A stretch of DNA of 15,800 bases from Promethearchaeati archaeon (GTDB lineage: Archaea; Asgardarchaeota; Heimdallarchaeia; JABLTI01). The translations under genes were made by a program, and so were the position numbers. The stretch lies in assembly GCA_034660795.1 (NCBI GenBank), contig JAYEJY010000168.1, positions 1 through 15,800 on the forward strand. The letters are read 5' to 3'. Of the stretch, positions 1,129 to 15,800 are shown piece after piece; position 1 is the first letter of the stretch, and each line of letters starts with the position of its first letter. The notes beneath the pieces are model-generated. The model had not been told where the DNA came from and searched no databases. It worked only from the letters and a program-made list of their open reading frames with translations.

Positions 1129-2223
1129 ATGAATGAAATAACCATGTTAACAAATAAGAATTACAAAATTGTTGCACCCGGTCGTGTTTTCCTTTTTGGG
1201 GAGCATAGTGATTATTTAGGCCTTGATGTCATTGCTATGGCAATAAATCGGAATCTTACCATAAATATTGAACCAACAAATAATGAGTTCTTTGAAATAA
1301 ACTATTTGGATCTAGAAGAAAAAGACAACTTTCCCAAAAACGAAATTTTGACCTATCGTCATTCTCGAGATTATGTACGAAGTGCTTATAATGTTCTATT
1401 AAGACAAGACATTATTCCAAAAAGATCAGCAAAAATGACCATTTCTAGTGACATACCAATTGCTAGCGGATTATCAAGTTCTTCAGCTTTATCAGTTGCT
1501 GCTATTTTAGCTTTTAGTTCATTAGCTGGAACACCTTTAACTAAAAAAGAAATTGTAGGATATGCATTTGAAGCTGAAGTTAAAGAATTTGGGGAAAGCG
1601 GTGGAAAGATGGATCACTTTGCATCAGTTTATGGTGGAATTATTCATGTTACCTTCCAGCAACAAATTGAACTTCAAGAAATAAACCTTAATTTATCTGA
1701 TTTTGTAATTGGTGACTCAAAAGAGAAAAAAGCGGATACTGTTGAAACTATAAAGTATATTCGTACGATGGTTGAGAAAGGTTATCAATTATTATCAAAA
1801 GAAATTCTTTCATTTAATCATAGGACAACTAGTCTGAAGGAAGTCAATGAACATATTGATAAATTACCTAAGACTGTACAAAAATTAACTCTTGCTTCAT
1901 TAAAAAATAGGGATATAACTAAGAAAGCTCTTATTTTTTTACAATCAAATAATTTCTCTGCACAAAAGTTTGGTTCATTATTGAATCAACATCATGAAAT
2001 TTTGCGCAATGATTTTTCCCGTTCAACGAAAAAGATTGAAAGGATGATTCAAGCTGCTAAGCAAGCAGGAGCATTGGGTTGTAAAATAAATGGGAGTGGA
2101 GGAGGGGGGACAATGGTAGCTTACGCTCCTGAAAAAGTCGAAAATGTTATCGAAGCTATAGAAAATGTTGGGGGGAAAGCATTTATTGTTACGCAATCTA
2201 ATGGTGCTTCAATTGTTTGTTAA
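1129..2223 (+). CDS. GHMP-family kinase, galactokinase-like sugar kinase (mevalonate/galactokinase superfamily)
   Basis: All three GHMP motifs are present: APGRVFLFGEHSDY (motif I), DIPIASGLSSSSALSVA (motif II, phosphate loop) and KINGSGGGGTMVAYA (motif III). PGRV..GEHxDY and GESGGKMDHF resemble the galactokinase PGRVNLIGEHTDY and GxxCGxMDQ strings more than mevalonate kinase (recalled consensus). ATG at 1144 is an alternative start. Confidence 0.8.
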   Translation: MNEITMLTNKNYKIVAPGRVFLFGEHSDYLGLDVIAMAINRNLTINIEPTNNEFFEINYLDLEEKDNFPKNEILTYRHSRDYVRSAYNVLLRQDIIPKRSAKMTISSDIPIASGLSSSSALSVAAILAFSSLAGTPLTKKEIVGYAFEAEVKEFGESGGKMDHFASVYGGIIHVTFQQQIELQEINLNLSDFVIGDSKEKKADTVETIKYIRTMVEKGYQLLSKEILSFNHRTTSLKEVNEHIDKLPKTVQKLTLASLKNRDITKKALIFLQSNNFSAQKFGSLLNQHHEILRNDFSRSTKKIERMIQAAKQAGALGCKINGSGGGGTMVAYAPEKVENVIEAIENVGGKAFIVTQSNGASIVC

Positions 2224-4172
2224 TCATTGGACCAAGAATCTCGAAGAGGAATAATTTGGTTAAAAATAGGTTTATTTTTTTTAGAATCTTTTGTATCAAT
2301 ACAGAAATACCCAATGCGTTCAAATTGAAATCTAGACCCTTTTGACTCATTTATTAGAAAAGGTTCAACAAAACCAGTTGTTTTTTCTAGGGAATTTGGA
2401 TTAATGAAATCAGTGAAATCTTTACCCTTTACTTTTTCAAGAGGATTTGCTTTCAAAAATAATTGATTATATAATCGAATTTTAACTTCCTTTGAATACT
2501 TAGCAGAAATCCAATGAATAATTCCTCTTACTTCTGGATATTCTTCCCCTGTCTCATCTTTTGAATCTGGTTCATAAGTACAATGAATTTCTTTTATTTC
2601 ACCTGTTTTTTTATCTTTTATTGCTTTCTCAAATTTAATAATATAAGCATTTTTTAATCGAACAGCTTGGGATGGCGTTAATCGGTAATAATCCTTTGGT
2701 GCTTTTTCCATGAAGTCCTCTTTTTCTATGTATAATGTTTTAGTAAATTTTACTTTGCGAGTACCCATGGATCTCTTCTTTGGATGATTCGCTAGAATAA
2801 ATTCTTCCTCTTTGTCTTCTGGATAGTTAGTAAGTACTATCTTTAAGGGATTAATAACACCCATTACTCGAGGGCATTTCTTGTAAAGATCTTCTCGAAT
2901 AGCATTATTTAAAATTGATTTGTCAATAACCTTATCCCGTTTTGAAACCCCGATTGTATTGGTGAATTGCTTAATAGCGGCTGGTGTTACTCCTCTACGT
3001 CGAAGACCTGCAAGAGTTGGCATTCTTGGGTCATCCCATCCTTCAACATAACCTTCCTTAACTAATCGTATAAGTTTACTTTTACTCATAATTGTATGTG
3101 AAATATTTACTCGAGCAAACTCTATTTGGCGAGGATGGTGGATAGGTTCTCCATTTTCATCTGTTAATTGTTCAAGATACCAATTATAGAGTGGACGGTG
3201 ATTCTCAAATTCTAAGGTACATATTGAATGCGTAATACCTTCAATACTGTCTTCTAAGCCATGTGCCCAGTCATACATAGGATAGATACACCAATCTTCT
3301 TCACGATGTGGGTGTTTTTGGTGAAGAATGCGATACATAACAGGATCACGGAGATTTAAATTAGGTGAACTCATATCGATTTTTGCACGTAGTACTCGTG
3401 ATCCCTCCGGGAATTCTCCTTTCCTCATTCGTTTAAATAAATCAAGGTTTTCATCAATACTTCGATCTCTATAGGGGCTGTTTTTACCTGGTTTGGTCAA
3501 TGTTCCCCGATATTGACTTATTTCTTCCGCACTTAGATCATCAACATATGCTTTGCCTTTTTCAATCATTTGTATAGCATATTCGTACATTTGCTCGAAA
3601 TAATCAGATGCAAAGAAGACATTATCTCCACCATTTCTTTTTTCGTAAACCCCTAACCATTTGATATCTTTTATCATAGCCTTAACATATTGTTCTTCTT
3701 CAGTTATAGGATTTGTATCGTCAAATCGAAAGTTAAATAGCCCATCATACTCTTTGGCTAAAGTATAGTTCATAATAATGGATGTCGCGTGTCCGATATG
3801 AAGATAGCCATTAGGTTCTGGAGGAAATCTCGTATGAACTTTGCCGTCGAACCGACTTGTTTCCATATCTTTATCGATAATTTCTCTGATGAAATCTTTC
3901 CCTTGAGCTTCTTCCATGTCTTCTTCAAGTTTTTCAAGAATTTCAGGATATTTTTCTGAAGCAAGTTTTTCAATTTCTAGTTGTGCCATTTCATTAATTT
4001 GTAATACCATTTGCTCAACGATTTCTTTTACTGCTTGAGCTTTTTTATGGTATTTGGGGAAAGATCCCATAATAATTTGCATAACAGGACCAACTTTTGC
4101 CTCACCATGTTCTAAAGCATTTTGAATTGCATATTTTTCACAGAGATTTTTTATTGAATCCATGTTTAACAT
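2220..4172 (-). CDS. glnS: Glutaminyl-tRNA synthetase (class I) with an ~95-aa N-terminal appended helical domain
   Basis: HIGH motif in VHTRFPPEPNGYLHIGHA; KMSKS variant in HTIMSKSKL. Long collinear matches to the recalled E. coli GlnRS sequence: NFRFDDTNP, YRGTLTKPGKNSPYRDRS, RAKIDMSSPN..RDPVMYRI, WCIYPMYDWAHGLEDSIEGITHSICTLEF, HPRQIEFARVN, VEGWDDPRMPTLAGLRRRG, FQFERIGYFC and PLRDSW. These are GlnRS-type strings, not archaeal GluRS-type (RFAPNPSG). The second Met, at 4163, is an alternative start. Confidence 0.92.
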   Translation of the reverse strand: MLNMDSIKNLCEKYAIQNALEHGEAKVGPVMQIIMGSFPKYHKKAQAVKEIVEQMVLQINEMAQLEIEKLASEKYPEILEKLEEDMEEAQGKDFIREIIDKDMETSRFDGKVHTRFPPEPNGYLHIGHATSIIMNYTLAKEYDGLFNFRFDDTNPITEEEQYVKAMIKDIKWLGVYEKRNGGDNVFFASDYFEQMYEYAIQMIEKGKAYVDDLSAEEISQYRGTLTKPGKNSPYRDRSIDENLDLFKRMRKGEFPEGSRVLRAKIDMSSPNLNLRDPVMYRILHQKHPHREEDWCIYPMYDWAHGLEDSIEGITHSICTLEFENHRPLYNWYLEQLTDENGEPIHHPRQIEFARVNISHTIMSKSKLIRLVKEGYVEGWDDPRMPTLAGLRRRGVTPAAIKQFTNTIGVSKRDKVIDKSILNNAIREDLYKKCPRVMGVINPLKIVLTNYPEDKEEEFILANHPKKRSMGTRKVKFTKTLYIEKEDFMEKAPKDYYRLTPSQAVRLKNAYIIKFEKAIKDKKTGEIKEIHCTYEPDSKDETGEEYPEVRGIIHWISAKYSKEVKIRLYNQLFLKANPLEKVKGKDFTDFINPNSLEKTTGFVEPFLINESKGSRFQFERIGYFCIDTKDSKKNKPIFNQIIPLRDSWSND

Positions 4173-4449
4173 ACTGTAAAAAAGTTCATAATAAATATTT
4201 AGTAGCTAAATCAATAAAAGCTAACCCAAAAAAAGCTTTTTTCTAGAAATTTTTCCCTAAAAAAGGTGTATTAATGTTAAAAAAAGTGAATCAAACAAAT
4301 AATAATAAATCTCTTATATCAGATATTATTTTCTTCAAACCCCTATTTGAGTAATTAATCTATTTTATTAAGTAATATTAGCGAAAATATTTTTAATACT
4401 CATATTTTATATTAAAAAGTTGATTAGTCTATAGACAAAAAGGCGATGT
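4173..4449. promoter_or_regulatory. AT-rich divergent intergenic region, presumed to hold the promoters for glnS (-) and the hydrogenase/complex-I-like operon (+)
   Basis: At 277 bp this is the largest non-coding gap in the window, and it lies between divergently oriented genes. A TATA-like tttatatt at 4406-4413 sits ~40 nt upstream of the operon ATG (4450). A TATA-like tract at 4188-4200 (minus-strand reading aaatatttattat) sits ~20-30 nt upstream of the glnS ATGs. The inverted repeat AAAAGCT (4216-4222) / AGCTTTT (4234-4240) has an 11-nt spacer. Specific elements are tentative because the whole region is A/T. Confidence 0.45.
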
Positions 4450-4788
4450 ATGTTGATTATAGTTACAAGAGAATATTCACTCTGGTTAGCACTGGGTTTA
4501 GTGCTTCTCGCCGTTATCCTACTATACCTATTGGGTCGGAGGATTGCCCCCTCCAAACCTACAGCAATAAAATGTTCTAGTTACGCTTGCGGAGAAGACA
4601 TGCCGGGCAAACATTCACAATTTTACCCGAATACCTTTATCTTTGCCATTTATTTCTCAATATTTGACATCTTGGCATTTGTCCTTGCAACCGCTATGAG
4701 TGTCTTTAAAGAAGGCCCTCAGTATGTGGCCGTTGCAGCAATATTTGCTGGAATAGGCCTATTAGGAGTGATCGTTTTACGACGGTGA
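4450..4788 (+). CDS. nuoA: NuoA-like membrane subunit (complex I subunit A / ND3 family), first gene of the operon
   Basis: 112 aa with three hydrophobic helices. The loop SSYACGEDMPGK matches the NuoA YECG loop, and FAIYFSIFDILAFVLA matches the NuoA TM2 FxxFDxE helix (Asp kept, Glu position is Leu). The position is the same as nuoA in nuo operons. Confidence 0.75.
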   Translation: MLIIVTREYSLWLALGLVLLAVILLYLLGRRIAPSKPTAIKCSSYACGEDMPGKHSQFYPNTFIFAIYFSIFDILAFVLATAMSVFKEGPQYVAVAAIFAGIGLLGVIVLRR

Positions 4789-4795
4789 AATACAC

Positions 4796-5296
4796 ATGGT
4801 TTTTAAAAAAACAGTTAATTGGGCGCGTGTAAAGTCACCATGGATCATCCACATAAATACCGGTGGCTGCAACGGATGTGATATAGAAGTTGTCGACGTT
4901 CTTACCCCAAGATATGACGTCGAACGATTTGGCATTGTTATTCAAGGCAGTCCACGACACGCGGATGTATTAGTGGTGACGGGACCAGCAACCCAGCAGA
5001 TGACGTCTCGATTAAAACGGTTATATGAACAGACACCAGATCCGAAATTTGTTGTCGCTATTGGCGCATGCGCTTGTAGTGGCGGGATTTTTAGACATAG
5101 CTATGTTGGTTGTAAAGGAATCGATACAGCCATCCCAGTTGATGTTTATGTACCTGGTTGTCCCCCTAAACCCGAGGCTATCATCTACGGAATAGCGCAA
5201 TTGTTAGCGAAACTACAGGGTAAAGAAACCCCAGTTATAACTCCTAAGGACATAAAGTCCGAAAAACTTGAACCCGATAAGGAGGTAGCTGTCTAA
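4796..5296 (+). CDS. Group 4 [NiFe]-hydrogenase small subunit / NuoB-family [4Fe-4S] subunit (MbhJ/HycG/EchC-like)
   Basis: 166 aa. [10 protein letters not shown] (Cys25/Cys28, nt 4868-4879), [12 protein letters not shown] (Cys92) and [11 protein letters not shown] (Cys122) supply the four ligands of the proximal/N2-type cluster. RYDVERFG and [12 protein letters not shown] are family-typical. The first two Cys are spaced CxxC as in hydrogenases, not adjacent CC as in complex I NuoB. Confidence 0.9.
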
Positions 5297-5298
5297 AA

Positions 5299-5817
5299 AT
5301 GAGTTCGTTAACAGCTGAACAAGAGGTAATTAACACCTTAAAAGATCATTTTGGAGATAAGATTCACGAAGCTGAAGCAACTCGTCCAAGAAGAATCCGA
5401 ATTAAAATCGCTGACCCTGACCAAGTTGAAGTGTTCAAATACGCAAAAGAATACATGAATGCATGGCATATGATTGCTATATCAAGTATTTACAAACCTG
5501 ATGGAACAATTGGTGTGGTTTATCATTTTGATATTAAACCACCTGTTAATGAAGGTCATAGCATTACCATGAATTTACATGTTGATTGCGAAGATAATGA
5601 GAACCCAAAACTTCAATCAGTAGTACCAGTGATACCTGGCGCAGGATTTTTTGAACGAGAAGCGTATGATTTAATGGGTATCAACTTCGAAGGACACCCA
5701 GATTTACGCAGACTTATTTTACCAGATGATTTTGAAGAAGGTGTACATCCTTTACGAAAAGACTTCCTTCTGGAAATCCAAAAGGAAGAAGCCAATAAAA
5801 AAGGCAAGAAAAATTAG
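5299..5817 (+). CDS. nuoC: NuoC-like 30-kDa subunit (MbhK/HycE-N-terminal type)
   Basis: 172 aa. The C-terminal signature [40 protein letters not shown] matches [17 protein letters not shown]...W.G.HPLRKD. A strong SD (AAGGAGGT, 5279-5286) precedes the ATG. Confidence 0.9.
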
Positions 5818-5819
5818 AG

Positions 5820-7100
5820 GTGACACAAGTGGCGAAAAAACAAATCAAAGTAACAGGTCCAGACACCGGTTGCGCGGCTTGTATGCCAAAGACACTTGAA
5901 ATTCCTCTCGGGCCGCAACATCCTGCTCTTAAGGAACCAACTCATTTTCTATTAGAAGTTGAGGGAGAAGTTATTGTTAATGCAACCCCTAGAATAGGAT
6001 ATGTCCATCGTGGCATTGAAAAACTCGCTGAAACAAAAACTTACTCTATGAACTTAACACTAGTTGAACGAGTCTGTGGAATTTGCAGTCATATCCATTC
6101 AATAACCTTGGCAAATGCTACTGAAACAGCACTTGCACAAAATGGATTTGAAATTCCCGAACGAGCACATTTTATTAGAACGATAGTTGCTGAATTAGAG
6201 AGAATTCACAGCCATGTCTTATGGTTAGGTGTCGCAGCACACGAAATAGGTTTCGATACCTTATTCATGTTATCATGGCGAGACCGTGAATTAACAATGG
6301 ATTTGTTAGAAGATATCTCAGGAAACAGAGTTAATTACGCCATGAATGAGATTGGCGGATGTCGGAGAGATATAAGTCAACAACAAAGTGAAAAGATAAA
6401 GAAATACATGGAAATTACTGAACAACGAATGGAACGTTATAAAGAGATTTGCTTAAAAGAAGAAACAATAAAAAGACGGACAAGTGGAGTTGGTGTCCTT
6501 AATACAGCAAAAGCAAAAGAATTATGTGCTGTAGGACCAACTGGTCGAGCATCTGGTATAGAAACGGATATTCGACATGATGATCCCTATTCAGCATATG
6601 ACCTCGGTTTGCAAGATATTTTCAAAGTTGTAACATTTGATACCAATGATGTATTTTCCAGAGTAGTTGTTCGTATAATTGAAACAATTGAGGCAACAAA
6701 ATACATTCGATGGTTGCTTGATAATATGCCTGAAGGTGATGTCTTTAAACGACCTCCTCGCAAAGTACCAGAAGCAAAAGTACTCTCCCGGACAGAAGCT
6801 CCAAGAGGAGAACTTATTCATTATCTCTGGTCAAATGACAGTGACAAACCATATCGATTGAAAATAACTACCCCAACACTCAACAATATCCAATCTGTGG
6901 CTGAAATGCTTCGAGGCGATTATATTGCTGATTCAACAATTACCCTCGCTTCAATAGATCCCTGTTTTAGTTGTGAAGATCGTTCTATAACTATTATCAA
7001 CAAAGATCGACGAAAACCAGAAATAACAACTTTAACAGAATCAGAATTACGACGACGAAATAAGAAATGGCATGAAAAAAATGGATGGGATAAAAGATGA
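5820..7100 (+). CDS. Group 4 [NiFe]-hydrogenase large (catalytic) subunit at the NuoD position (NuoD/HycE/MbhL/EchE family)
   Basis: N-terminal Ni-Fe motif ERVCGICSHIH (Cys codons 6075-6077 and 6084-6086). C-terminal motif DPCFSCEDR (6957-6983), followed by 38 further residues. GPQHPALKEPTHF is the hydrogenase-type loop. The start is GTG at 5820 or, more likely, GTG at 5829, which lies 5 nt downstream of SD AGAGGTGA (5816-5823). ATG at 5883 is also possible but has no SD. Confidence 0.9.
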   Translation: MTQVAKKQIKVTGPDTGCAACMPKTLEIPLGPQHPALKEPTHFLLEVEGEVIVNATPRIGYVHRGIEKLAETKTYSMNLTLVERVCGICSHIHSITLANATETALAQNGFEIPERAHFIRTIVAELERIHSHVLWLGVAAHEIGFDTLFMLSWRDRELTMDLLEDISGNRVNYAMNEIGGCRRDISQQQSEKIKKYMEITEQRMERYKEICLKEETIKRRTSGVGVLNTAKAKELCAVGPTGRASGIETDIRHDDPYSAYDLGLQDIFKVVTFDTNDVFSRVVVRIIETIEATKYIRWLLDNMPEGDVFKRPPRKVPEAKVLSRTEAPRGELIHYLWSNDSDKPYRLKITTPTLNNIQSVAEMLRGDYIADSTITLASIDPCFSCEDRSITIINKDRRKPEITTLTESELRRRNKKWHEKNGWDKR

Positions 7101-8188
7101 GTAATATTGTTTGGTGGATAACGACGGTTTTAGGGATATTATTTTTCCCTGGTATTGGATTTTGTATCTCTCTCGCACTATTTGATGAATGGTTAGATCG
7201 TAAATTTTACGCAGCTCTGCAAGATCGAATAGGTCCCCTACATACAGGTTTTAAGGGAATAATGCAACCTCTTGCTGATTTCTTGAAACTGATGGCTAAA
7301 GAAGATGTTGAACCAACAGTAGCCGATAAATGGGGTATGCGATTAACCGCAATATCCGCGTTAATTATACCTTTAGTCTCAATGCTCTTTATGCCAATTA
7401 TTGATACAACTGGGCTCATATCTTTTGAAGGTGACCTTTTGTTATTGGCGTTTCTAGGTACCTTATTAGCTATAATTATCTATCTTGCAGGCTGGTTCTC
7501 AGCCAATAGATTAGCTATGCCTGGAATGATGAGAGCGATCACTCAGTTATTGAGTTATGAAATTCCTTTGATGATATCATTGTTTGCTGTAGCATTACGA
7601 ACACAGTCATTATCAATTGCTGGCATAGTTGATTGGCAATTAACACATCACAGACCAACAATCTTCAGTCTTCCAATATTTTTGATGTTCGGTATATTCT
7701 TAATTTCGACCCAAGCAGAATTAGAACGAAGTCCTTTTGATATCCCAACAGCTGAAACAGAAATTGTTGGAGGTTGGGAAGTTGAATATTCTGGAAAGAA
7801 ACTTGCGTTTTTCAGATTAGGCTCTGATTTACAAATGATTTATGGTGCTAGCATCGGAACAGCATTATACTTAGGCGGACCCACTGGTGTTGAAATGTGG
7901 ATACCTGCATTTGCAAATACTCTTGCAACAACCCCAGGATATCATGTCTGGCCAATACTTTACTATACAGCAATGTTTATGCTGAAAACTTCGTTAATTG
8001 TACTTGTATTTGCAACAATAAGAGCACTCATGGCACGTTTACGAATTGAACAATTCTTAGAATTTTCATGGAAATGGCTTATTCCTATTGGACTTGGACT
8101 TATCATAGTAATCTTCTTCTGGGTTCCATGGATGGACGACATTTTATGGGACAGATTTGAGAATCTTGTAGAAGGAGTGACAACTTAA
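7097..8188 (+). CDS. nuoH: NuoH-like membrane subunit (ND1 / HycD / MbhM family)
   Basis: 363 aa, polytopic. LDRKFYAALQDRIGP...GIMQPLADFLKLMAKEDVEP is the NuoH signature (ER.....Q.R.GP...G..G.LQP.AD..K...KE...P). ELERSPFDIPTAETEIVGGW matches the conserved AE.E.EL.GF-type loop. The start overlaps the upstream stop (ATGA at 7097-7100). Confidence 0.9.
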   Translation: MSNIVWWITTVLGILFFPGIGFCISLALFDEWLDRKFYAALQDRIGPLHTGFKGIMQPLADFLKLMAKEDVEPTVADKWGMRLTAISALIIPLVSMLFMPIIDTTGLISFEGDLLLLAFLGTLLAIIIYLAGWFSANRLAMPGMMRAITQLLSYEIPLMISLFAVALRTQSLSIAGIVDWQLTHHRPTIFSLPIFLMFGIFLISTQAELERSPFDIPTAETEIVGGWEVEYSGKKLAFFRLGSDLQMIYGASIGTALYLGGPTGVEMWIPAFANTLATTPGYHVWPILYYTAMFMLKTSLIVLVFATIRALMARLRIEQFLEFSWKWLIPIGLGLIIVIFFWVPWMDDILWDRFENLVEGVTT

Positions 8189-8204
8189 ACAGGTGATATG
8201 AAAA

Positions 8205-8621
8205 ATGACACGACCTGCAGTAATAATTTGGGAAGCGTTAAAGAATGCATTCAAATGTAAGAAAGCAACCATAGATTATCCTTATGAAGAAGGTGTTAAA
8301 CCCGAAAAAGGTTTACGAGGAGCTCATCGCTTCGAAATCGAGAAATGCATCGGTTGCAGTAGATGTGCACGCGTATGCCCAGCTGACGCTATAGAAATGG
8401 TTCATTCAGACATCACTAGAACAAATAAACGACCCGTCATTAATCTCAGTGAATGTATTTTCTGTGCTCTCTGTGCAGATAATTGTCCAAAAGACTGTTT
8501 ACATATGACTGATTACATTGAACTTTCTGCTTTTAACCCAGAAGAAATGATTATTTATCAAAAAGAACCTCCAAAAGAAGAAATTTCTGAGGAGGAGGAA
8601 AAGAAGGAGAAATCAACCTAA
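8205..8621 (+). CDS. nuoI: NuoI-like 2x[4Fe-4S] ferredoxin subunit (MbhN/HycF type)
   Basis: 138 aa with two canonical motifs, CIGCSRCARVCP and CIFCALCADNCP. SD AGGTGA at 8191-8196. Charged Glu/Lys C-terminal tail. Confidence 0.9.
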   Translation: MTRPAVIIWEALKNAFKCKKATIDYPYEEGVKPEKGLRGAHRFEIEKCIGCSRCARVCPADAIEMVHSDITRTNKRPVINLSECIFCALCADNCPKDCLHMTDYIELSAFNPEEMIIYQKEPPKEEISEEEEKKEKST

Positions 8622-8638
8622 GAGTACCTTCTAGAAAA

Positions 8639-8971
8639 ATGGATGTGCAAAAAAATATGGATTTTAATTCAATATTATTAATAATCTTACTCGCGTTGGT
8701 AGTTCTTGCTGCCATTTTTGCTATAGAGCTCAAAGATTTGATTTATGCAGCCATTGCATTAGGAGTTCTAAGCATTGCACTAGCGGGTGTTTTTTGGATA
8801 TTAAATGCTCCTTGGGTTGCACTCTTCCAACTGATGATTTATGGAGGGGCTGTAACAATCCTCCTTATAACAACTGTTGCTCTTACTGAGCGACGAGAAA
8901 CAGGTGAACCTGTGGAGGATCTTGACGATATAGTCCCAACCAGAGAAAAACAGGAGGAATCAAGTGTATGA
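8639..8971 (+). CDS. nuoJ: NuoJ-like membrane subunit, N-terminal half (TM1-3; J1)
   Basis: 110 aa. LIYAAIALGVLSIALAGVFWILNAPWVALFQLMIYGGAVTILLITTVAL is collinear with the recalled E. coli NuoJ ALLYLIISLLAISGVFFSLGAYFAGALEIIVYAGAIMVLFVFVVMML, including the Y(A/G)GA helix-3 signature. ATG at 8657 is an alternative start. Confidence 0.7.
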   Translation: MDVQKNMDFNSILLIILLALVVLAAIFAIELKDLIYAAIALGVLSIALAGVFWILNAPWVALFQLMIYGGAVTILLITTVALTERRETGEPVEDLDDIVPTREKQEESSV

Positions 8972-9369
8972 AACCAAGAACATCTCAAATACTCAGTTTT
9001 GTGGTCGGGATTGTGCTAGCACTTAGCGTCTACGGCTTCATGATGTATGGTCTAAGAGATTTTAATGATCCAAATAACACTGATGATAGTTTTATAGGTT
9101 TAACTGATAACGACGACGATGACCGAGATAATTTTCCCTTTTTGAATTTAACAAATCTTTCTTATCATGAACTTGGTGAAAAGATGGGTGAATTGCTATG
9201 GAAAACACGAGCGATTGATGTTATTATTTTAGGCATCATATTAATTGTCGCCTCAGAATCAGCATCTTCAATAGTTAAAGGTATTGAAGAACAATGTGCG
9301 GAATTTCGTCAAGAATTATGTGAATCCAGTGAATACCTTGTTGTAACTGAAAAAGAGGAGGAGCAATAG
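8968..9369 (+). CDS. NuoJ-like membrane subunit, C-terminal half (J2), with a long acidic loop
   Basis: 133 aa: one N-terminal TM, a ~70-aa acidic loop (TDNDDDDRDNF), then LGEKMGELLWKTRAIDVIILGIILIVA. That last stretch resembles the NuoJ C-terminal LGxxLFTxYxxPFExxSxLLLxA segment. ATGA overlap with J1, and SD CAGGAGGA at 8951-8958. The assignment rests on position plus a weak motif. Confidence 0.5.
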   Translation: MKPRTSQILSFVVGIVLALSVYGFMMYGLRDFNDPNNTDDSFIGLTDNDDDDRDNFPFLNLTNLSYHELGEKMGELLWKTRAIDVIILGIILIVASESASSIVKGIEEQCAEFRQELCESSEYLVVTEKEEEQ

Positions 9370-9371
9370 CA

Positions 9372-9704
9372 ATGGATATACCATTTGATAACATTTATGT
9401 GATATTAGGATTTTCAGTGGCATTGTTAGTAATTGGTGTCTATACTTTTGCAGCAAAGAAAAACATGATCAAATATTTGATCGCCATTGAACTTTTGTTA
9501 GATGCAGCTCATCTTAATTTTATTGCATTCTCAAATATTTTTGGTGCTACAGGTGAGTTTGTCGATCCACTACCTCATGCTGTCGTAACTGTCAGTATTT
9601 GTATTGGTGGATGTGTTGCTGGCGTTGCGTTAGCCTTGATAATTCAAGCCTATCGCGTACACGGTACGATAAATTCTCAGAAATTATCCAACTTGAAATA
9701 TTAG
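9372..9704 (+). CDS. nuoK: NuoK / MrpC (MnhC)-family small membrane subunit
   Basis: 110 aa, 3 TM. KKNMIKYLIAIELLLDAAHLNFIAF matches the NuoK/MrpC TM2 (conserved Glu present). DPLPHAVVTVSICIGG..ALALIIQAYR matches the MrpC-type DPLPQALILTAIVI....YR string. SD GAGGAGGAG lies upstream. Confidence 0.85.
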   Translation: MDIPFDNIYVILGFSVALLVIGVYTFAAKKNMIKYLIAIELLLDAAHLNFIAFSNIFGATGEFVDPLPHAVVTVSICIGGCVAGVALALIIQAYRVHGTINSQKLSNLKY

Positions 9705-9720
9705 GAGTGTATCAAAAAAA

Positions 9721-11847
9721 ATGTTCTCACAATATACCCCTATTATTAATTGGGCTGTACCTTTTGCTGGAGCTATTATTACTCCAATAATCGGTTTTAT
9801 CGCTGGTAAAATTAAGGAAGGAAAAACACAAGAAGTGTTATATTTTATCCGTAATTGGTTTGCAACCTTTACAGCAGCTATTTCCTTTATCTTTAGTTTA
9901 TCAATGGTTCCCGATGTTTTTGGAGGCTCTGGTGGAGAAACAGTCTGGGCTACATGGTTCTCCGGGCTACTCGATAAAAACCTGAATCCTATGATTGTTG
10001 AGTTTGGCACTTTAGTTGATCCGTTATCTGTCATGGTAGCGTGTTTCGCCTCAGGTGTAGGCTTAATGATTATGATTTATGGAGTTGGTTATATGAAAGG
10101 AGACAAACACCTTGATAGATATTGGTTTGAAATGCAAGCCTTTATTGGTGGGATGGTTCTCCTTGTAATGTCAAATAATCTCTTCATGACCTATGTTGGT
10201 TGGGAGATTGTTGGATTCTGTTCATATGCATTAATCGGGTACTACTTTAATAAAAAAGAAAAACAAGACCCTAGGGAATTAACACTACAGGAAGAAACTG
10301 AAGGTGATTACAATTCTCATGCAGGATTGAAAGCATTCATCACAACACGTATAGGTGATGTTATGATGCTCATGGGTATACTCATAGTTTTCTTCTATGC
10401 TGGCACCTTTAGTTATATGGATTTACTCGCTGATCTTTCCTGGATAACAGCACTGAAAAACAATAATATTTTGATCTTAACAGCTATCCTAATTTTTGGA
10501 GGACCTATTGGCAAATCAGCTCAATTCCCATTACAGGTTTGGTTGCCAGAAGCCATGGCAGGTCCAACAACAGTTTCTGCGCTAATTCACGCTGCAGCAA
10601 TGGTAAAAGCAGGTGTATACATGGTGACACGAACCTTCCCAATGTGGTATTTAGGACTGCATGATCTTGGTTTTGAAAATTTGAAGATATACTTCTTATT
10701 TGTTGCTGCTATTGGTGGTTTTACTGCCTTCATGGCTGCTACCATGGGTACAGCTTCACTAGAATTGAAGAAAGTCTTAGCTTTCAGTACCATCAGTCAA
10801 TTAGGCTATATGTTTATGTCTCTCGGTGTTGGTGGACTTATTGAACCAGAAGCTGGTGTCGTAGATTTTAACGGTTTCTTTGGTGGAACATTTCACATGC
10901 TTTCTCATGCAATGTTTAAGGCACTCCTGTTCTTATCTGCAGGTGCTGTTCTTCATGCTGTCCATAGTAAATATATGGATCGTATGGGAGGCTTGCGAAA
11001 AGATATGCCAAAAGTCTTTTGGCCGATGCTTGTAGGTGGTCTTTCGCTTGCAGGTATACCGCCGTTAGGAGGCTTTTTCAGCAAGGAATCAATCTTTGCC
11101 ACATGTCACCACTTGGGATCACAAGGCAATCCAGTAGGTTGGATATTCTTAGCCGTTGGAGCTATTGCAGCTGTTTTAACCTTATTCTACACTATTAGAT
11201 TCCTCGCTTTCACTTTTAGCGGAGAAAAATCAGAGAATGTACTCGAAGTTGAAGAACACCAAGGCGGTCATTTACACAAAACACACCCAACAATGTGGAT
11301 TCCACTAATATTATTAGCAGCTGGAACAATTGTAAGTGGATTTATTGGACCATTTGTAGAACAATTCATGAGTTCAAATACTTGGTTTAGTGCTGCAACA
11401 ACCTTTACTGTAGAAGAATTTCATCTGAATTATGGGCACTATCTTGCTCATACATTTGGCTCATGGACCTTTTACGGAGTAACCTTAGGCATTATTGCAG
11501 TAGGCGGTATCCCGGCATATTTCTTATTTGTTCAAAGAAAATGGGATCTCAAGAAACTAAAACAAGAAAATAAATTCATCAATGGACTTTACACAATCTT
11601 ACATCGTCGATGGTTTATCAATGATTTCTACTACATATTATTACGAGGATTTAAGAAATTTTCAGAATTAGCATACGAATATTTCGACTTACGAGTAATA
11701 GACCAATTAAATTACATTATAGCATCTGGTACAATGAAATCAGGCGAAGTTTTCCGAAAGACGCATACAGGAGTCCTGTCTGTGAACTTTATCTATCTAT
11801 TATTTGGCATAATGGCCATTTTAATAATATTACTATTTGCACTCTAG
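9721..11847 (+). CDS. nuoL: Antiporter-like subunit, NuoL / MrpA-N type, with C-terminal lateral-helix region
   Basis: 708 aa. Core motifs WEIVGFCSYALIGYYF, GKSAQFPLQVWLPEAMAGPTTVSALIHAAAMVKAGVY and FHMLSHAMFKALLFLSAG. The C-terminal RRWFINDFYY..FDLRVIDQLNY..RKTHTGVLSVNFIYLLFG plus a final TM matches the NuoL-specific amphipathic helix and anchor region. Confidence 0.92.
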   Translation: MFSQYTPIINWAVPFAGAIITPIIGFIAGKIKEGKTQEVLYFIRNWFATFTAAISFIFSLSMVPDVFGGSGGETVWATWFSGLLDKNLNPMIVEFGTLVDPLSVMVACFASGVGLMIMIYGVGYMKGDKHLDRYWFEMQAFIGGMVLLVMSNNLFMTYVGWEIVGFCSYALIGYYFNKKEKQDPRELTLQEETEGDYNSHAGLKAFITTRIGDVMMLMGILIVFFYAGTFSYMDLLADLSWITALKNNNILILTAILIFGGPIGKSAQFPLQVWLPEAMAGPTTVSALIHAAAMVKAGVYMVTRTFPMWYLGLHDLGFENLKIYFLFVAAIGGFTAFMAATMGTASLELKKVLAFSTISQLGYMFMSLGVGGLIEPEAGVVDFNGFFGGTFHMLSHAMFKALLFLSAGAVLHAVHSKYMDRMGGLRKDMPKVFWPMLVGGLSLAGIPPLGGFFSKESIFATCHHLGSQGNPVGWIFLAVGAIAAVLTLFYTIRFLAFTFSGEKSENVLEVEEHQGGHLHKTHPTMWIPLILLAAGTIVSGFIGPFVEQFMSSNTWFSAATTFTVEEFHLNYGHYLAHTFGSWTFYGVTLGIIAVGGIPAYFLFVQRKWDLKKLKQENKFINGLYTILHRRWFINDFYYILLRGFKKFSELAYEYFDLRVIDQLNYIIASGTMKSGEVFRKTHTGVLSVNFIYLLFGIMAILIILLFAL

Positions 11848-11863
11848 GAGGATTATCAAGACA

Positions 11864-13369
11864 ATGTTCAATACAACGTTATTAATATCAATAATTATCT
11901 TATTAGCAGCACCGCTGATAATCTTCATTATTGGTAATTGGAATGCTGATGTAGCAAAATGGTTGGCGTTTGCAGCAACACTAATTGCTGGTGTATTCTT
12001 TGCTCTCACCTTAGGTGATGTATTGAATTTAGGAATACATGAAGAAAGCTGGCCTTGGATGGACTTTATTGTTGGAAGCATTAATTTCAAAATCAGTTTT
12101 TCATTAATTGCTGATAATTTGAGCTTCCCTATCGTGGCAATCATTTTCATCTTGTCCTTAGCAGCAGTAATGTATAGCTTTAGCTATATGAAAGAAGAAA
12201 AAAATCTTGGAGTATATTATGCTTTACTGGTTCTCTACATCGCTGGTATGGTTGGTGTAGTGTTAGCTGGTGATCTTGTCCAATTTTACATTTTCTGGGA
12301 ATTAATGTTAATTCCATCATACTTCATTATTGCTCAATGGGGTTCAAAACCAAATAGTGTAAAAATTGCTTTCAAATATTTCATCTTTACTCATATTGGT
12401 GCAATGGCTATCCTAGCTGGCATAGGTGGTTTATGGGCCTATGGTTCACCAGATGGTAGTTTTACTATTGCAACACTCGATATGAGTTCCACACCCGCAA
12501 TTGCAATAAGATTACTGACGATCCTTTTCCTTGTAGGTTTTAGTGTCAAGATGGCAATCTTTCCAATTCACTCTTGGCTACCAGATACTCACAGTGAAGC
12601 ACCCACTCCAATAAGCGCCATTTTGTCTGGTGTAATGATCGAAACAGCCGCATATGGTATTCTTCGAATATGCACCGGAGTTATTGGTGAACCTGGTATG
12701 GGTGGATGGATGCGTTGGGTCTTAATCGGATTAGCGGTCTTCACAATGATGTACGGTGGAATCATGGCTTTGGCTCAAAAAGATACAAAGAGACTCTTTG
12801 CATATTCTTCAATATCGCAAATGGGTTACATATTCTTTGGTTTAGGCACATTTACCATGTTTGGATCAACTGGTTCAATGTTTCATATTGTCAGTCATGC
12901 CTTAGCAAAAGGCACTTTGTTTATGGTCGCTGGTATCTTAATGACACAAATCGGACATCATAAAGGACGAAACATCGAAAAACTAGGTGGTCTAGGATTG
13001 AAAATGCCTATTACAGCAATTGTTGCGATGATTGCAGCCTTGAGTCTTGCTGGCACACCACCACTAGCTGGCTTTATGTCAGAATGGATAATCTTCCAAG
13101 GTGGTTTACAAGCAAATAGTACTCTTGGCATAATCGCTGTAATCTTTGCAATACTTTCGACGGCCTTAACTGCTACTTATGTCTTGCTTTTCCTAAAGAA
13201 TGTCTTTTTAGGACCTGTGAAAGAAGAGTACGAAGACATTACAGATCCAAGTCCTTACATGTGGGTGCCTTTAGCAATAATTGCTATATTGAGTTTTGTT
13301 GTCGGCATCTTCCCAAATACAGTGCTAACATTCGTAACCGAAGTGGTTGCGAAAATTTTCGGAGCGTAG
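11864..13369 (+). CDS. nuoM: Antiporter-like subunit, NuoM / MrpD type
   Basis: ATG at 11864 is preferred over the ORF-track TTG at 11837, because SD TAGGAGGA (11845-11852) sits 11 nt upstream and the TTG start would overlap nuoL. Motifs: FYIFWELMLIPSYFII, VKMAIFPIHSWLPDTHSEAPTPISAILSGV, FAYSSISQMGYIF and FHIVSHALAKGTLFMVAG. Confidence 0.9.
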   Translation: MFNTTLLISIIILLAAPLIIFIIGNWNADVAKWLAFAATLIAGVFFALTLGDVLNLGIHEESWPWMDFIVGSINFKISFSLIADNLSFPIVAIIFILSLAAVMYSFSYMKEEKNLGVYYALLVLYIAGMVGVVLAGDLVQFYIFWELMLIPSYFIIAQWGSKPNSVKIAFKYFIFTHIGAMAILAGIGGLWAYGSPDGSFTIATLDMSSTPAIAIRLLTILFLVGFSVKMAIFPIHSWLPDTHSEAPTPISAILSGVMIETAAYGILRICTGVIGEPGMGGWMRWVLIGLAVFTMMYGGIMALAQKDTKRLFAYSSISQMGYIFFGLGTFTMFGSTGSMFHIVSHALAKGTLFMVAGILMTQIGHHKGRNIEKLGGLGLKMPITAIVAMIAALSLAGTPPLAGFMSEWIIFQGGLQANSTLGIIAVIFAILSTALTATYVLLFLKNVFLGPVKEEYEDITDPSPYMWVPLAIIAILSFVVGIFPNTVLTFVTEVVAKIFGA

Positions 13370-13383
13370 GAGATGATTAGAAA

Positions 13384-14910
13384 ATGAATATCTACTATAT
13401 CTTACCAATAATAATCCCGATCGCTGGTGCATTAGTTATTGCAATCCTTGGACGATTTGCGAAAAAACAGACCTTAGGTTGGATGTTAGGATATGCCTCG
13501 ATTGCTATCTTATGCCTTCTTACTTCCTTAGGGCTCATTATTTCTTTCTATCCACAAATAGGAAGTATTGATCCCTCAGAGTTAAATTGGAAAATTGGTG
13601 GGCTTATAGGTTCAACCTTTAAAATGGATACTATTACCTGGTGGCTTAGCTTAATATTCACCTTACTGGGAACTATTGTTGCTATCTATTCTATCCGTTA
13701 TATGGACAAAGATGATCGATTAGATAGATATTACTTACTCTTACTCATTCTTATTGAAGGAATGATTGGTGTAGTAATGTCAGGTGACTTGTTCACTTTG
13801 TTCATCTTCTGGGAAACAATGAGCCTTTCTAGTTATGTACTCGTTTCCTTCCGAAAAGAGCAACCAGATCCCATTGAAGCAGGTATAAAGTATCTCTTCA
13901 TGAGTGCTTTTGGAAGTATCAGTCTATTATTCGGTATGTCATTAATATATGGTACAACTGGAACATTGAATATTGCTAGTATCGCACAAATTTATCTTAC
14001 GAAAATTTCCGCATATGGCTTATCAAGTGTTCATTATGTCATCATAACAGCCCTTATTATTGGGTTTGGTGTGAAAGCTGCTATTGTACCTTTACATACA
14101 TGGCTTCCCGATGCTCATCCAGCCGCTCCCTCCGGAATCAGTGCAATGTTATCAGGCGTAGTCATTATGACTGGAATGTATGGAATGATTTATACCTTAA
14201 CCTCATTCTTTGCTCCAAGTATTGATACGCTGGGCTTTGTATTACTCTGGATAAGCATTGTAACAATGTTTGTTGGGAACTTGTTAGCATTACGACAAAA
14301 TGACTTGAAACGACTTTTAGCTTTCTCAACCGTATTGAATGTCGGTTTTATTCTATTCGGTTTAAGCATGGGGTCAGCTGGAATTAATGCTGATGCTTCT
14401 GCTTTAGGTGTTCAAGGTGGATGGTTCCATATTTTCACTCATTCCCTTGGAAAAGGTCTGGCATTTCTTTGCGCTGGGGCGATTCTCTATCGATTTAAAG
14501 AACGTGGTTTAGACAAACTGGAAGGCATTGGTAAAAGAATGCCATGGACTATGGGTGCTCTCACAATTGCACTCTTAAGTCTTGCCGGGGTACCACCATT
14601 ACCAGGATTCTGGTCGAAATTGAATATGGTCATCGCTGCAGTACAATCAGGGAATTGGCAATATTATGTTGGTGTTGGGTTATTCTTGCTTTCAAGCGTA
14701 ACATCAGTAGTTTATTACTTGATTGTTCTTCAACGCATGTGGTTTAAAGAACCAAGCGAAGAAGTGCAAAATGTTCAAGAAACACCACTTGAAATCATCA
14801 TTCCACTCTATGTTTTAGTAATAGTGATGGTTTTAGTGTCAATTATTCCTAATACCTTTTCAGCAATCGCTGCGAATGCAGCAAGCGATTTACTCAGTTT
14901 TATTCCATGA
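13384..14910 (+). CDS. nuoN: Antiporter-like subunit, NuoN type
   Basis: 508 aa. Motifs: LFIFWETMSLSSYVLVSF, EAGIKYLFMSAFGSISLLFGMSLIYGTTGTLNI (NuoN-type EA..KYF....LFG.SL.YG.TGS), VKAAIVPLHTWLPDAHPAAPSGISAMLSG and HSLGKGLAFLCAG. Ends with tandem stops TGA TAG (14908-14913). Confidence 0.9.
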   Translation: MNIYYILPIIIPIAGALVIAILGRFAKKQTLGWMLGYASIAILCLLTSLGLIISFYPQIGSIDPSELNWKIGGLIGSTFKMDTITWWLSLIFTLLGTIVAIYSIRYMDKDDRLDRYYLLLLILIEGMIGVVMSGDLFTLFIFWETMSLSSYVLVSFRKEQPDPIEAGIKYLFMSAFGSISLLFGMSLIYGTTGTLNIASIAQIYLTKISAYGLSSVHYVIITALIIGFGVKAAIVPLHTWLPDAHPAAPSGISAMLSGVVIMTGMYGMIYTLTSFFAPSIDTLGFVLLWISIVTMFVGNLLALRQNDLKRLLAFSTVLNVGFILFGLSMGSAGINADASALGVQGGWFHIFTHSLGKGLAFLCAGAILYRFKERGLDKLEGIGKRMPWTMGALTIALLSLAGVPPLPGFWSKLNMVIAAVQSGNWQYYVGVGLFLLSSVTSVVYYLIVLQRMWFKEPSEEVQNVQETPLEIIIPLYVLVIVMVLVSIIPNTFSAIAANAASDLLSFIP

Positions 14911-14920
14911 TAGAAATAAT

Positions 14921-14949
14921 AGCATGAAGACCTCTTCATGCTTTTTTTA
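14921..14949 (+). terminator. Intrinsic-terminator-like hairpin plus T-tract ending the operon
   Basis: Perfect inverted repeat AGCATGAAGA (14921-14930) / TCTTCATGCT (14933-14942) separated by CC, followed directly by TTTTTTT and a second T8 run at 14954-14961. It lies 11 nt after the nuoN stop, between convergent genes. Confidence 0.7.
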
Positions 14950-14990
14950 TCTATTTTTTTTAAAAGTAACATAATTATAATTTACTACTT

Positions 14991-15800
14991 CTAATTAGGT
15001 ACTTGTTTTTCTGATGTTTTTTGTCGATTTCTTCTTGTAATAGTTCTTACAAAACGTACTATCAATACTATTCCACCAAGTAACCCTGGAAAAATAACAT
15101 TAACTAAAGTTTGGAGGATGGATAGATTCAATGCATTATGTATCGATATAAACATAATTTTACTAAAAAGCTCTCTAAGAATAGTATCACGTATTCCTAT
15201 CCCACTGATGCTGAAAGGAAAAGCTATAGCTGATAACGCACCTATTGCTAATATCCCGCTGATTAGTAAAGGTTGGAAAGTACTTTCACCAAAAGCTAGA
15301 AGAAAGAAAACACCTTGGAAACCAAGCACTATCCAGAAAAGCACTGAGAAGATAGTTAAGAAGAAGTAATTTCGTATTTTAAATTTCTTTTGAAAAACAA
15401 AAAAATCATTAGATATGTCATCAGTTTGTATCAAAATTTTATTTTGTCTACTTTTTTTCTTAAATGCTCTAGCAATAAATTTAACAAAAAATGTGATTAT
15501 TTTACGCGTGAACTTTTTGTTAAAAATAAAAATTATTATTATTACAAAAAGTACAAAACCAATTACTATACCAAGAAAAATCCACCAAGAAAGATCAAGA
15601 AAAACAACCTTTGTTAATAAAAAAGGAAAGGAAACCAGTAAAATAATTAAAATTCCTCCCAAATCCAACAATCTATCGAAGACAACTGAAAAAATAGTAC
15701 TTCCAATTTTTGCTTCGTCATTATTTTTTGATAAATAAAAAGCTCTTAAAATATCACCAACTTTTGCGGGTGTTAGACTAGAGCCAAAGGTGCCTATCAA
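14991..15800 (-). CDS. Polytopic membrane protein, possibly UPF0104 / LPG-synthase-TM (flippase-like) family; N-terminus outside window
   Basis: The ORF is open to the window edge, so the ORF-track M is a TTG at the boundary and not a real start. It has at least 6 hydrophobic helices and a basic C-terminal tail. LTPAKVGDILRAFYL and FPFSISGIGIRDTIL resemble the paired P.x.GG.G..E helix-loop motifs of UPF0104-type proteins. The family call is tentative. Confidence 0.6.
   Translation of the reverse strand: MIGTFGSSLTPAKVGDILRAFYLSKNNDEAKIGSTIFSVVFDRLLDLGGILIILLVSFPFLLTKVVFLDLSWWIFLGIVIGFVLFVIIIIFIFNKKFTRKIITFFVKFIARAFKKKSRQNKILIQTDDISNDFFVFQKKFKIRNYFFLTIFSVLFWIVLGFQGVFFLLAFGESTFQPLLISGILAIGALSAIAFPFSISGIGIRDTILRELFSKIMFISIHNALNLSILQTLVNVIFPGLLGGIVLIVRFVRTITRRNRQKTSEKQVPN

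Follow-up and report, generated by a model that had tools for sequence, protein, structure and literature searches.

Membrane-bound hydrogenases and complex I

Respiratory complex I is thought to have descended from a membrane-bound hydrogenase that became joined to an Mrp-type antiporter. Hydrogenase 4 (Hyf) of Escherichia coli has a group 4 hydrogenase head together with three antiporter-like subunits (HyfB/D/F), and neither Hyf nor Hyc contains NuoA or NuoJ. In the Ehr and Mbx/MBS complexes, the Ni-Fe cysteines have been lost in part or altogether. The subject of this report is a 12-gene operon at positions 4450-14910 of a 15,800-nucleotide stretch of DNA ("the window") that forms part of contig JAYEJY010000168.1 in the Promethearchaeati archaeon assembly GCA_034660795.1. 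Its source is an Asgard archaeon of the Heimdallarchaeia type. The likely product of this operon is a group 4 [NiFe]-hydrogenase, membrane-bound and ion-translocating, that evolves H2 or is reversible and in which a catalytic head resembling that of Mbh is set on a membrane arm built like that of the complex I core.

The closest described systems come from Asgard archaea. Complex I-like group 4 hydrogenases of Heimdallarchaeia have been assigned to subgroups 4j, 4m, 4p, and 4q (Appler et al. 2024, bioRxiv 10.1101/2024.07.04.601786). Their clusters contain NuoBCDI without NuoEFG and are described as having ferredoxin as the electron donor, a NuoD that is an active hydrogenase, and no access for quinone; the same authors concede that open reading frames (ORFs) may have been missed among their inputs. 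A complex I-like group 4 hydrogenase has also been reported from Freyarchaeia and Atabeyarchaeia (Valentin-Alvarado et al. 2024, Nat Commun, PMC11291895), and AlphaFold2-multimer work on related Asgard clusters arrived at an equal reading (Appler et al. 2024; Valentin-Alvarado et al. 2024). Asgard genomes had thus already yielded enzymes of this kind in 2024, and the window locus is a rediscovery and not a new class. A preliminary description of this DNA, made from its sequence, had cautioned that equivalent operons were perhaps already noted, and in this it was correct.

The window enzyme shares with the published Asgard kind the Asgard origin, a NuoB-C-D-I arm without NuoEFG, intact Ni-Fe cysteines, a NuoL-like subunit whose lateral helix is complete, and a predicted coupling of ion pumping to the transfer of electrons from ferredoxin to H2. 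It differs, together with its nearest relatives (the window clade), in that it has three antiporter-like subunits, L, M, and N, and in that all of its genes follow one another in a single 12-gene operon with the order of nuo/fpo.

The idea of a link between hydrogenases and complex I is likewise already in print. Ni-Fe enzymes that possess NuoA, a complex-I-type NuoH, a lateral-helix NuoL, and subunits at the NuoM and NuoN positions are the closest living models of this transition, and they are found in the archaeal lineage nearest to eukaryotes. In the window clade, the full-length version is compact and comes in a single operon, which makes it practical for heterologous expression or cryo-electron microscopy, and it would allow a direct test of the number of ions that a low-energy redox couple can drive through a complex-I arm.

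The gene order of the operon

All 12 ORFs of the operon lie on the forward strand in the order NuoA-B-C-D-H-I-J1-J2-K-L-M-N (Table 1). Eleven of the subunits are named by Pfam matches: A (PF00507), B (PF01058), C (PF00329), D (PF00346 plus PF00374), H (PF00146), I (two 4Fe-4S matches), J1 (PF00499/MbhD), K (PF00420), and L, M, and N (each PF00361 plus PF00662). Only J2 takes its name by other means, described below. Among forward-strand ORFs of at least 60 amino acids (aa) in the window, there is no input module (NuoEFG or FpoF), and neither the ORF list nor Pfam places formate dehydrogenase genes or MrpE/F/G/B-like genes in the operon. The same 12-gene order is present in each of the five window-clade loci that were compared, which are the window itself and the loci designated L001/L002, L003/L004, L012, and L013.

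The catalytic head

The large subunit, at the NuoD position, contains four cysteines that are expected to hold the Ni-Fe site, Cys86/Cys89 within RVCGICSHIH (the L1 motif) and Cys382/Cys385 within DPCFSCEDR (the L2 motif). In pairwise alignments they match, column by column, the Ni-Fe ligands of Pyrococcus furiosus MbhL (6CFW; C68/C71/C374/C377) and of Escherichia coli HycE (7Z0S), and so occupy the L1/L2 ligand positions. At these four positions Thermus thermophilus Nqo4, a complex I subunit, has D86, H89, V, and D; in place of its quinone ligands, His38 and Tyr87, the window protein has Lys38 and Gly87. Glu39 aligns with E21 of MbhL (HPGLEEP), and the arginine of DPCxxCxxR is also aligned with that of MbhL and HycE. 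Both motifs are kept in all clade members. Among solved structures, the large subunit matches MbhL best (283 bits), followed by HycE (260 bits), Nqo4 (202 bits), and, in 16th place, MbsL (154 bits). It scores under the cut-off in all of the NCBIfam NuoD equivalog models. The names NuoD and FpoD that NCBIfam offers for it are below their cut-offs and do not constitute a classification; NCBIfam seems to have no dedicated model for group 4 large subunits.

The 37 residues that follow DPCFSCEDR are homologous to the cleaved pro-peptide of HycE and are conserved across a wider archaeal clade. They are read as a HycE-type pro-peptide. In one member of that wider clade, a Thermoplasmatota relative (L005), the operon includes a gene for a HycI protease. 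The two cysteine motifs and a C-terminal pro-peptide had all been claimed in the preliminary description, and all are present.

The small subunit agrees with this picture. Where complex I has the tandem-Cys sequence GLACCAVE, subunit B has GGCNGCDIE, which is equivalent to the CNGC of MbhJ; the hydrogenase-type spacing reported earlier for this subunit is thus confirmed, with an MbhJ-type GxCNGCDIE in place of the tandem CC. Its best match in the PDB is MbhJ (185 bits), with the complex I PSST subunit at ~144 bits and HycG at 142 bits. Judged from these alignments, the catalytic head appears to be that of a hydrogenase and not of a quinone reductase.

Subunits C and I favor neither Mbh nor complex I and therefore contribute nothing to the argument, developed below, that the complex is a mosaic. 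For I, the matches are MbsN (75 bits), NdhI (72 bits), HycF (58 bits), and MbhN (57 bits). By analogy with Mbh and NDH-1, this subunit is presumed to be the docking site for ferredoxin.

The membrane arm

The membrane subunits NuoA, H, J, K, L, M, and N are present in nuo order, including a NuoL with a lateral helix, J2 being assigned by position and N falling below the NuoN cut-off. The loop YACGED of the NuoA-like subunit is similar to the YECG of complex I, and orthologs occupy the equal position in L001, L003, L012, and L013. Subunit H is nearest to complex I and NDH-1: it matches NdhA with 156 bits and Nqo8 with 119 bits, versus 62 bits for MbhM, 59 bits for MbsM, and 47 bits for HycD, so that its bit score to NdhA/Nqo8 is 2.5-fold that to MbhM.

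The J2 protein has no match in Pfam, NCBIfam, or the PDB, even at E = 10. It is conserved in five of five clade loci, and hhalign relates it with 86% probability to a 77-aa protein at the equivalent position in L005, which in turn has a faint match to PF00499 positions 78-146. Its position, its two transmembrane (TM) helices, and this weak profile match together suggest that J2 is the C-terminal half of NuoJ.

Subunit L is nearest to complex I/NDH-1, by its matches to NdhF (268 bits) and Nqo12/NuoL (232 bits) versus MrpA (180 bits) and MbhH (122 bits), and the alignment reaches its last residues. An AlphaFold2 model of L, made from a 52-sequence alignment, has a predicted local distance difference test score (pLDDT) of 84.7 and a predicted template-modeling score (pTM) of 0.86. 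In this model, helices extend over residues 610-683 (~74 residues), one of them 53 residues long, and residues 686-707 form a TM helix at the end of the chain; the former is the predicted lateral helix, HL, and the latter its predicted anchor. When the model is used as a Foldseek query, NdhF, NuoL, and ND5 are the top hits and are matched over the full length with TM-scores (template-modeling scores) of 0.7-0.8. Compared with cyanobacterial NdhF, L contains an acidic insertion of ~20 residues (KKEKQDPRELTLQEETEGDYN) between TM5 and TM6, at residues 177-197 (10249-10311), where the confidence of the model is lower.

The M subunit matches MbhH (212 bits), NdhD (189 bits), and NuoM (182 bits). 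The N subunit is nearest to MbhH (250 bits) and MbsH (201 bits), with the NuoN chains of complex I at ~110-138 bits, and it scores 252 against the NuoN model TIGR01770, under the cut-off of 333. A Glu in TM5 and a Lys in TM7 are present in L, M, and N, and the TM12 residue is Lys/Glu/Lys (L/M/N), as in complex I. The central Lys of TM8 (K265 in E. coli NuoM), which is retained in MbhH, NuoM, and NdhD, is replaced by Glu in M and by Met in N, and these substitutions are kept in the clade loci L001 and L003 and in a locus from Hodarchaeota (L010).

The complex thus reads, by its subunit affinities, as a mosaic: B, D, and N are nearest to Mbh, H and L are nearest to complex I/NDH-1, and M is NuoM-like. 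The earlier claim of a complex-I-type arm with NuoA, NuoJ, NuoK, and three distinct L/M/N subunits stands, L and M passing the cut-offs of TIGR01974 and TIGR01972, and the broader proposal of a hydrogenase head on a complete complex-I-type pumping arm is supported by the cysteine alignments, the subunit affinities, and the model of L.

Comparison with characterized complexes

Mbh of P. furiosus (6CFW, group 4d) is the closest solved homolog of D, B, and N; it has the same Ni-Fe and cluster motifs, and both complexes contain an MbhD-like J1 and a NuoK-like subunit. However, where the window operon has three antiporter-like subunits and no Mrp module, Mbh has a single such subunit and, in addition, an Mrp-type Na+ module (MbhA-C, F). 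Mbh also lacks a NuoL with a lateral helix, and its MbhM is distant from the H subunit of the window. The complex I core (archaeal Fpo, fpoABCDHIJJKLMN; bacterial Nuo; the ferredoxin-dependent NDH-1L of cyanobacteria, 6HUM) shares with the operon its gene order, a split J, the A, H, J, K, L, and M subunits, the lateral helix, and the TM12 K/E/K pattern; like NDH-1, the window enzyme has no NADH module and is likely to take its electrons from ferredoxin. The window enzyme differs from this core in having a Ni-Fe site instead of a quinone site, a CxxC instead of a tandem CC, and an N subunit that fails the NuoN cut-off and is without the TM8 Lys.

Formate hydrogenlyase-1 of E. coli (Hyc, 7Z0S) supplies the second-best solved match to the large subunit and a homologous C-terminal pro-peptide, yet HycD is far from subunit H. 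Ehr and Mbx/MBS follow the same module logic and are also debated as links between hydrogenases and complex I; unlike them, the window enzyme keeps all four cysteines.

Relatives of the operon

A large subunit 100% identical to that of the window, MEA2070776.1, is annotated as "Asgard group archaeon". About two dozen cluster representatives have large subunits that are 74-80% identical, several of them labeled Heimdallarchaeota, after which identity drops to 57% or less. A scan of genome contigs with the large subunit returned just two distant relatives, an alphaproteobacterial NuoD and a homolog from an uncultured archaeon.

In the next clade, the genes are more loosely arranged. The Thermoplasmatota locus L005 has the order J1-J2-K-L-(M/N-like)-A-B-C-D-H-I-HycI and lies beside an A-type ATPase. 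In a Freyarchaeota locus (L006), whose large subunit is 57% identical to that of the window, A-B-C-D-H-I is accompanied by a separate J1-J2-K-L-M cluster, and a Thermoproteota relative has A-B-C-D-H-I by itself. Two further loci, L010 from Hodarchaeota (6496-15268) and L011 from a vent metagenome (5684-15277), contain J1-J2-K-L-M-N plus a divergent A-B-C, with no adjoining D-H-I; HypD and an A-type ATPase are found near the former. Since L010 and L011 also have L-M-N, three antiporter-like subunits are not unique to the window clade within Heimdallarchaeia.

A neighbor-joining tree of the large subunit was built with 123 near-full-length sequences, each representing a 50%-identity cluster, that came from a set of 1.84 billion proteins. 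The window clade falls among proteins with all four cysteines, as sister to an archaeal A-B-C-D-H-I clade (Thermoplasmatota, Loki/Frey/Jord, and Thermoproteota). The cluster of Cys-less NuoD proteins (pattern DSVE) is far away, the alphaproteobacterial NuoD ranking 138th of 139 by distance, and proteins with partial cysteine patterns (CDCD, CECD, CSCE) lie in a separate part of the tree. The preliminary description had asked whether the large subunit might belong to a characterized subgroup whose operons have the same 12 genes. The shared gene content was found, in five of five loci; the characterization was not, as the subgroup is known in silico only.

One member of the clade, L003 (GCA_035528535.1, DATKYH010000063.1), has a 77%-identical large subunit and the full 12-gene operon, and was deposited as "candidate division Zixibacteria bacterium". 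This contig is probably mis-binned, because its gene content agrees with that of the Heimdallarchaeota loci.

Clade-specific cysteines

Three cysteine features set the clade apart. The large subunit has an N-terminal extension of ~22 aa (5820-5900) with the motif TGCxxC(M/V/I)P, which is TGCAAC in the window; the C-terminus of J2 (9270-9369) carries QC(A/S)EFRxExC, which is QCAEFRxExC in the window; and the small subunit (5060-5120) has two extra cysteines (GACAC and xCxG) and a C-terminal tail of ~25 aa. All three are found in five of five clade loci and are missing in 55%-identity relatives. The extra cysteines of D, J2, and B may form an added, clade-specific metal or redox site.

Proposed reaction, energetics, and alternative readings

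By homology with Mbh, NDH-1, and complex I, reduced ferredoxin would dock at the NuoI-like 2x[4Fe-4S] subunit, and its electrons would pass from the clusters of I through the small subunit, with its single [4Fe-4S] cluster, to the Ni-Fe site, for a total of three [4Fe-4S] clusters. At the Ni-Fe site of the large subunit, 2 H+ would be reduced to H2, perhaps reversibly. The energy would then be transmitted through the "E-channel" region of NuoH/A/J/K to the antiporter-like subunits N, M, and L; with the lateral helix of L as their clamp, these would move H+ across the membrane. The complex lacks an Mrp-type Na+ module, an input module for NADH or F420, and a canonical quinone site. That ferredoxin is the donor, which way the reaction runs, which ion is moved and at what stoichiometry, and an arrangement of the modules as in complex I rather than as in Mbh are all drawn by such homology.

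Several observations weigh against this reading. The calculated energy from ferredoxin (-500 mV) to H+/H2 is ~17 kJ per H2 at 1 bar and ~39 kJ at 10 Pa H2, and the calculated cost of moving one H+ against 150 mV is 14.5 kJ, or ~58 kJ for four H+. Since ~17-39 kJ is less than ~58 kJ, a four-channel arm cannot evolve H2 at the stoichiometry of complex I. The Glu and Met at the TM8 position of M and N, as aligned, also suggest that not every channel need be canonical. No hyp maturation genes and no HycI-type protease gene are present in the window, and among the relatives HypD occurs only near the Hodarchaeota locus and HycI only inside the Thermoplasmatota operon. The neighbor-joining tree is without support values and has MbhL, HycE, and one NuoD as its named anchors, so that the placement it gives is rough. 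Finally, the complex I-like hydrogenases of Asgard archaea are described only in silico.

Possible ways out of the energetic difficulty are that fewer ions are moved, that the proton motive force (pmf) is low, or that the pmf drives the enzyme backward, as an H2:ferredoxin reductase. With Glu and Met at the TM8 position, M and N are compatible with a lower or non-canonical ion stoichiometry. An unlikely reading goes further: the clade would be the sole case of a true hydrogenase head that drives, or is driven by, a full four-channel complex-I arm; the enzyme would have a lower or variable stoichiometry, or act mainly as an H2:ferredoxin reductase; and it might in addition carry the clade-specific Cys site. 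None of these features is described in the literature examined.

In methanogens, Eha, Ehb, and Ech are driven by the pmf and provide low-potential electrons for biosynthesis or CO2 fixation. The window enzyme could work in the same direction: where the pressure of H2 is low, the pmf (3-4 H+ per H2) would drive electrons uphill from H2 to ferredoxin. The calculation suits the long arm better in this case, as 39 kJ (H2 at 10 Pa to ferredoxin) corresponds to ~3 H+ at 150 mV; group 4 enzymes are in principle reversible, and the TM5 Glu, the TM7 Lys, and the charged TM12 residue are kept in L, M, and N. However, Heimdallarchaeia and the cultured Hodarchaeales are described as H2-producing, peptide-fermenting syntrophs, none of the five loci has CO2-fixation genes beside the operon, and in print the reaction is interpreted as H2 evolution (Appler et al. 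2024). A predominantly reverse reaction is judged to be distinctly unlikely.

The gene order of nuo/fpo, including the split J, the affinity of H and L for complex I/NDH-1, and the labeling of relatives at NCBI as NADH dehydrogenase subunits might instead suggest a quinone-reducing, ferredoxin-dependent, 11-subunit complex I that has simply kept hydrogenase-like cysteines. This is very improbable, given that His38/Tyr87 are replaced by Lys/Gly, that the four Ni-Fe cysteines and a cleavable-type pro-peptide are present clade-wide, that B has no tandem-Cys N2 motif, that the large subunit is below the cut-off of the NuoD equivalogs and far from Cys-less NuoD, and that the published models show no quinone access. 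A quinone-reducing Nuo11/Fpo complex is thus largely refuted by the lost quinone ligands and the retained Ni-Fe cysteines. There is slighter reason still to propose an Mbs/Mbx sulfane-sulfur (polysulfide) reductase or an Ehr-type complex without hydrogenase chemistry. MbsN (75 bits) is the best complex-type PDB match of the I subunit, and MBS has two antiporter-like subunits, but the large subunit matches MbsL with 154 bits (16th) versus 283 bits for MbhL, its four cysteines are intact while partial-Cys proteins lie elsewhere in the tree, and the operon has no MrpE/F/G/B-like genes; such an assignment deserves almost no credence. Formate hydrogenlyase was also considered and was rejected, as the operon contains no formate dehydrogenase and no HycB/HyfA-type polyferredoxin.

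Operon boundaries and start codons

Positions of the features are collected in Table 1. Successive intergenic gaps within the operon are 7, 2, 2, -4, 16, 17, -4, 2, 16, -11, and 14 nt, and both of the -4 overlaps are ATGA (7097-7100 and 8968-8971). The -11 overlap, between L and M, arises from the TTG start that the ORF lister chose for M. An ATG at 11864, which is preceded by GGAGGA and would change the gap to +16, is the likely true start. Likewise, the true start of the large subunit is likely the GTG at 5829, behind GAGGTGA, in agreement with the 423-aa protein model at NCBI.

Table 1. Coordinates of the operon genes and of the elements that flank them (bit scores are shown with the model cut-off or the PDB match)
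Feature	Position	Strand	Properties
Divergent intergenic region	4173-4449		277 bp, 21% GC, AT-rich; between nuoA and the opposite-strand GlnRS gene
A, NuoA-like subunit	4450-4788	+	112 aa, 3 TM; PF00507 36.2 bits vs cut-off 23.3
B, hydrogenase small subunit, NuoB/MbhJ type	4796-5296	+	PF01058; proximal [4Fe-4S] ligands GGCNGC...GAC...GCPP
C, NuoC/MbhK-like subunit	5299-5817	+	PF00329; MbhK 61 bits, Nqo5 59 bits, neither preferred
D, [NiFe]-hydrogenase large subunit	5820-7100	+	PF00346 + PF00374; 37-aa C-terminal pro-peptide
H, NuoH-type membrane anchor/coupling subunit	7097-8188	+	PF00146, 256 bits
I, NuoI/MbhN-type 2x[4Fe-4S] subunit	8205-8621	+	Cluster motifs CIGCSRCARVCP, CIFCALCADNCP
J1, NuoJ N-terminal half, MbhD-like	8639-8971	+	PF00499 positions 2-68 of 146; PF13244 MbhD
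J2, putative NuoJ C-terminal half	8968-9369	+	Two TM helices, acidic loop of ~45 aa
K, NuoK-like subunit	9372-9704	+	PF00420, 72 bits
L, NuoL-type subunit	9721-11847	+	708 aa; TIGR01974 455.6 vs cut-off 407.5, full length
M, NuoM-like subunit	11837-13369	+	TIGR01972 329 vs cut-off 264
N, third antiporter-like subunit, NuoN position	13384-14910	+	Closest to MbhH
Hairpin and T-rich tracts	14921-14968	+	9-bp stem at 14921-14942, then TTTTTTTATCTATTTTTTTT

The AT-rich region upstream of nuoA is presumed to be the promoter region of both the operon and the divergent glutamine-tRNA ligase (GlnRS) gene, and the hairpin with its T-rich tracts is presumed to mark the end of transcription of the operon. 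A scan for sigma-70 promoters found sites no more frequently than in shuffled controls, the bacterial consensus being uninformative for an archaeon. As the preliminary description had it, the cluster consists of 12 co-directional ORFs that are at most 17 nt apart and twice overlap at an ATGA, bounded by a 277-bp upstream region and a 3' hairpin; all of these are present at the coordinates given here. Its assignment of the nuo/fpo-core order without NuoEFG agrees with Pfam for every subunit other than J2, and the membrane families named there (PF00507, PF00499, PF00420, PF00146, and PF00361) were all matched.

The operon has a GC content of 38%, versus 23-34% in its flanks, and the GC content at third codon positions is 0.23-0.38, versus 0.16-0.22; A and B are highest, at 42-45% GC. 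The higher GC of the operon could stem from its level of expression, from constraint on amino acids, or from a history that differs.

Neighboring genes

The gene that diverges from nuoA (2220-4172, reverse strand) encodes GlnRS, with a score of 678 bits versus a cut-off of 426 for TIGR00440 (glnS). It also passes NF011291, a model of a GlnRS/YqeY fusion (793 versus 681), and is below the cut-offs of the archaeal GluRS models. To our knowledge, GlnRS is missing from most archaea.

In three other clade loci, a co-directional trio of genes lies straight 5' of nuoA (L003, 6146-8453; L012, 1601-3940; L013, 6096-8409); it is not found in the window or in L001. The products of the trio are a ~417-aa protein without a Pfam match, a metallo-beta-lactamase/ODP (oxygen-binding di-iron) protein of 243 aa, and a protein of ~105 aa; they may serve to sense oxygen or to protect against it.

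A very AT-rich (23% GC) ORF of 153 aa with WD40 repeats and a TTG start (200-661) lies at the contig's left end. On the 3' side of the operon, a convergent gene (14991-15800, reverse strand) encodes a flippase-like membrane protein (LPG_synthase_TM, TIGR00374). Of the four other clade loci, three (L001/L002, L003/L004, and L013) also have this gene 3' of the operon, and there it is followed by a gene for an NAD-dependent epimerase/dehydratase.

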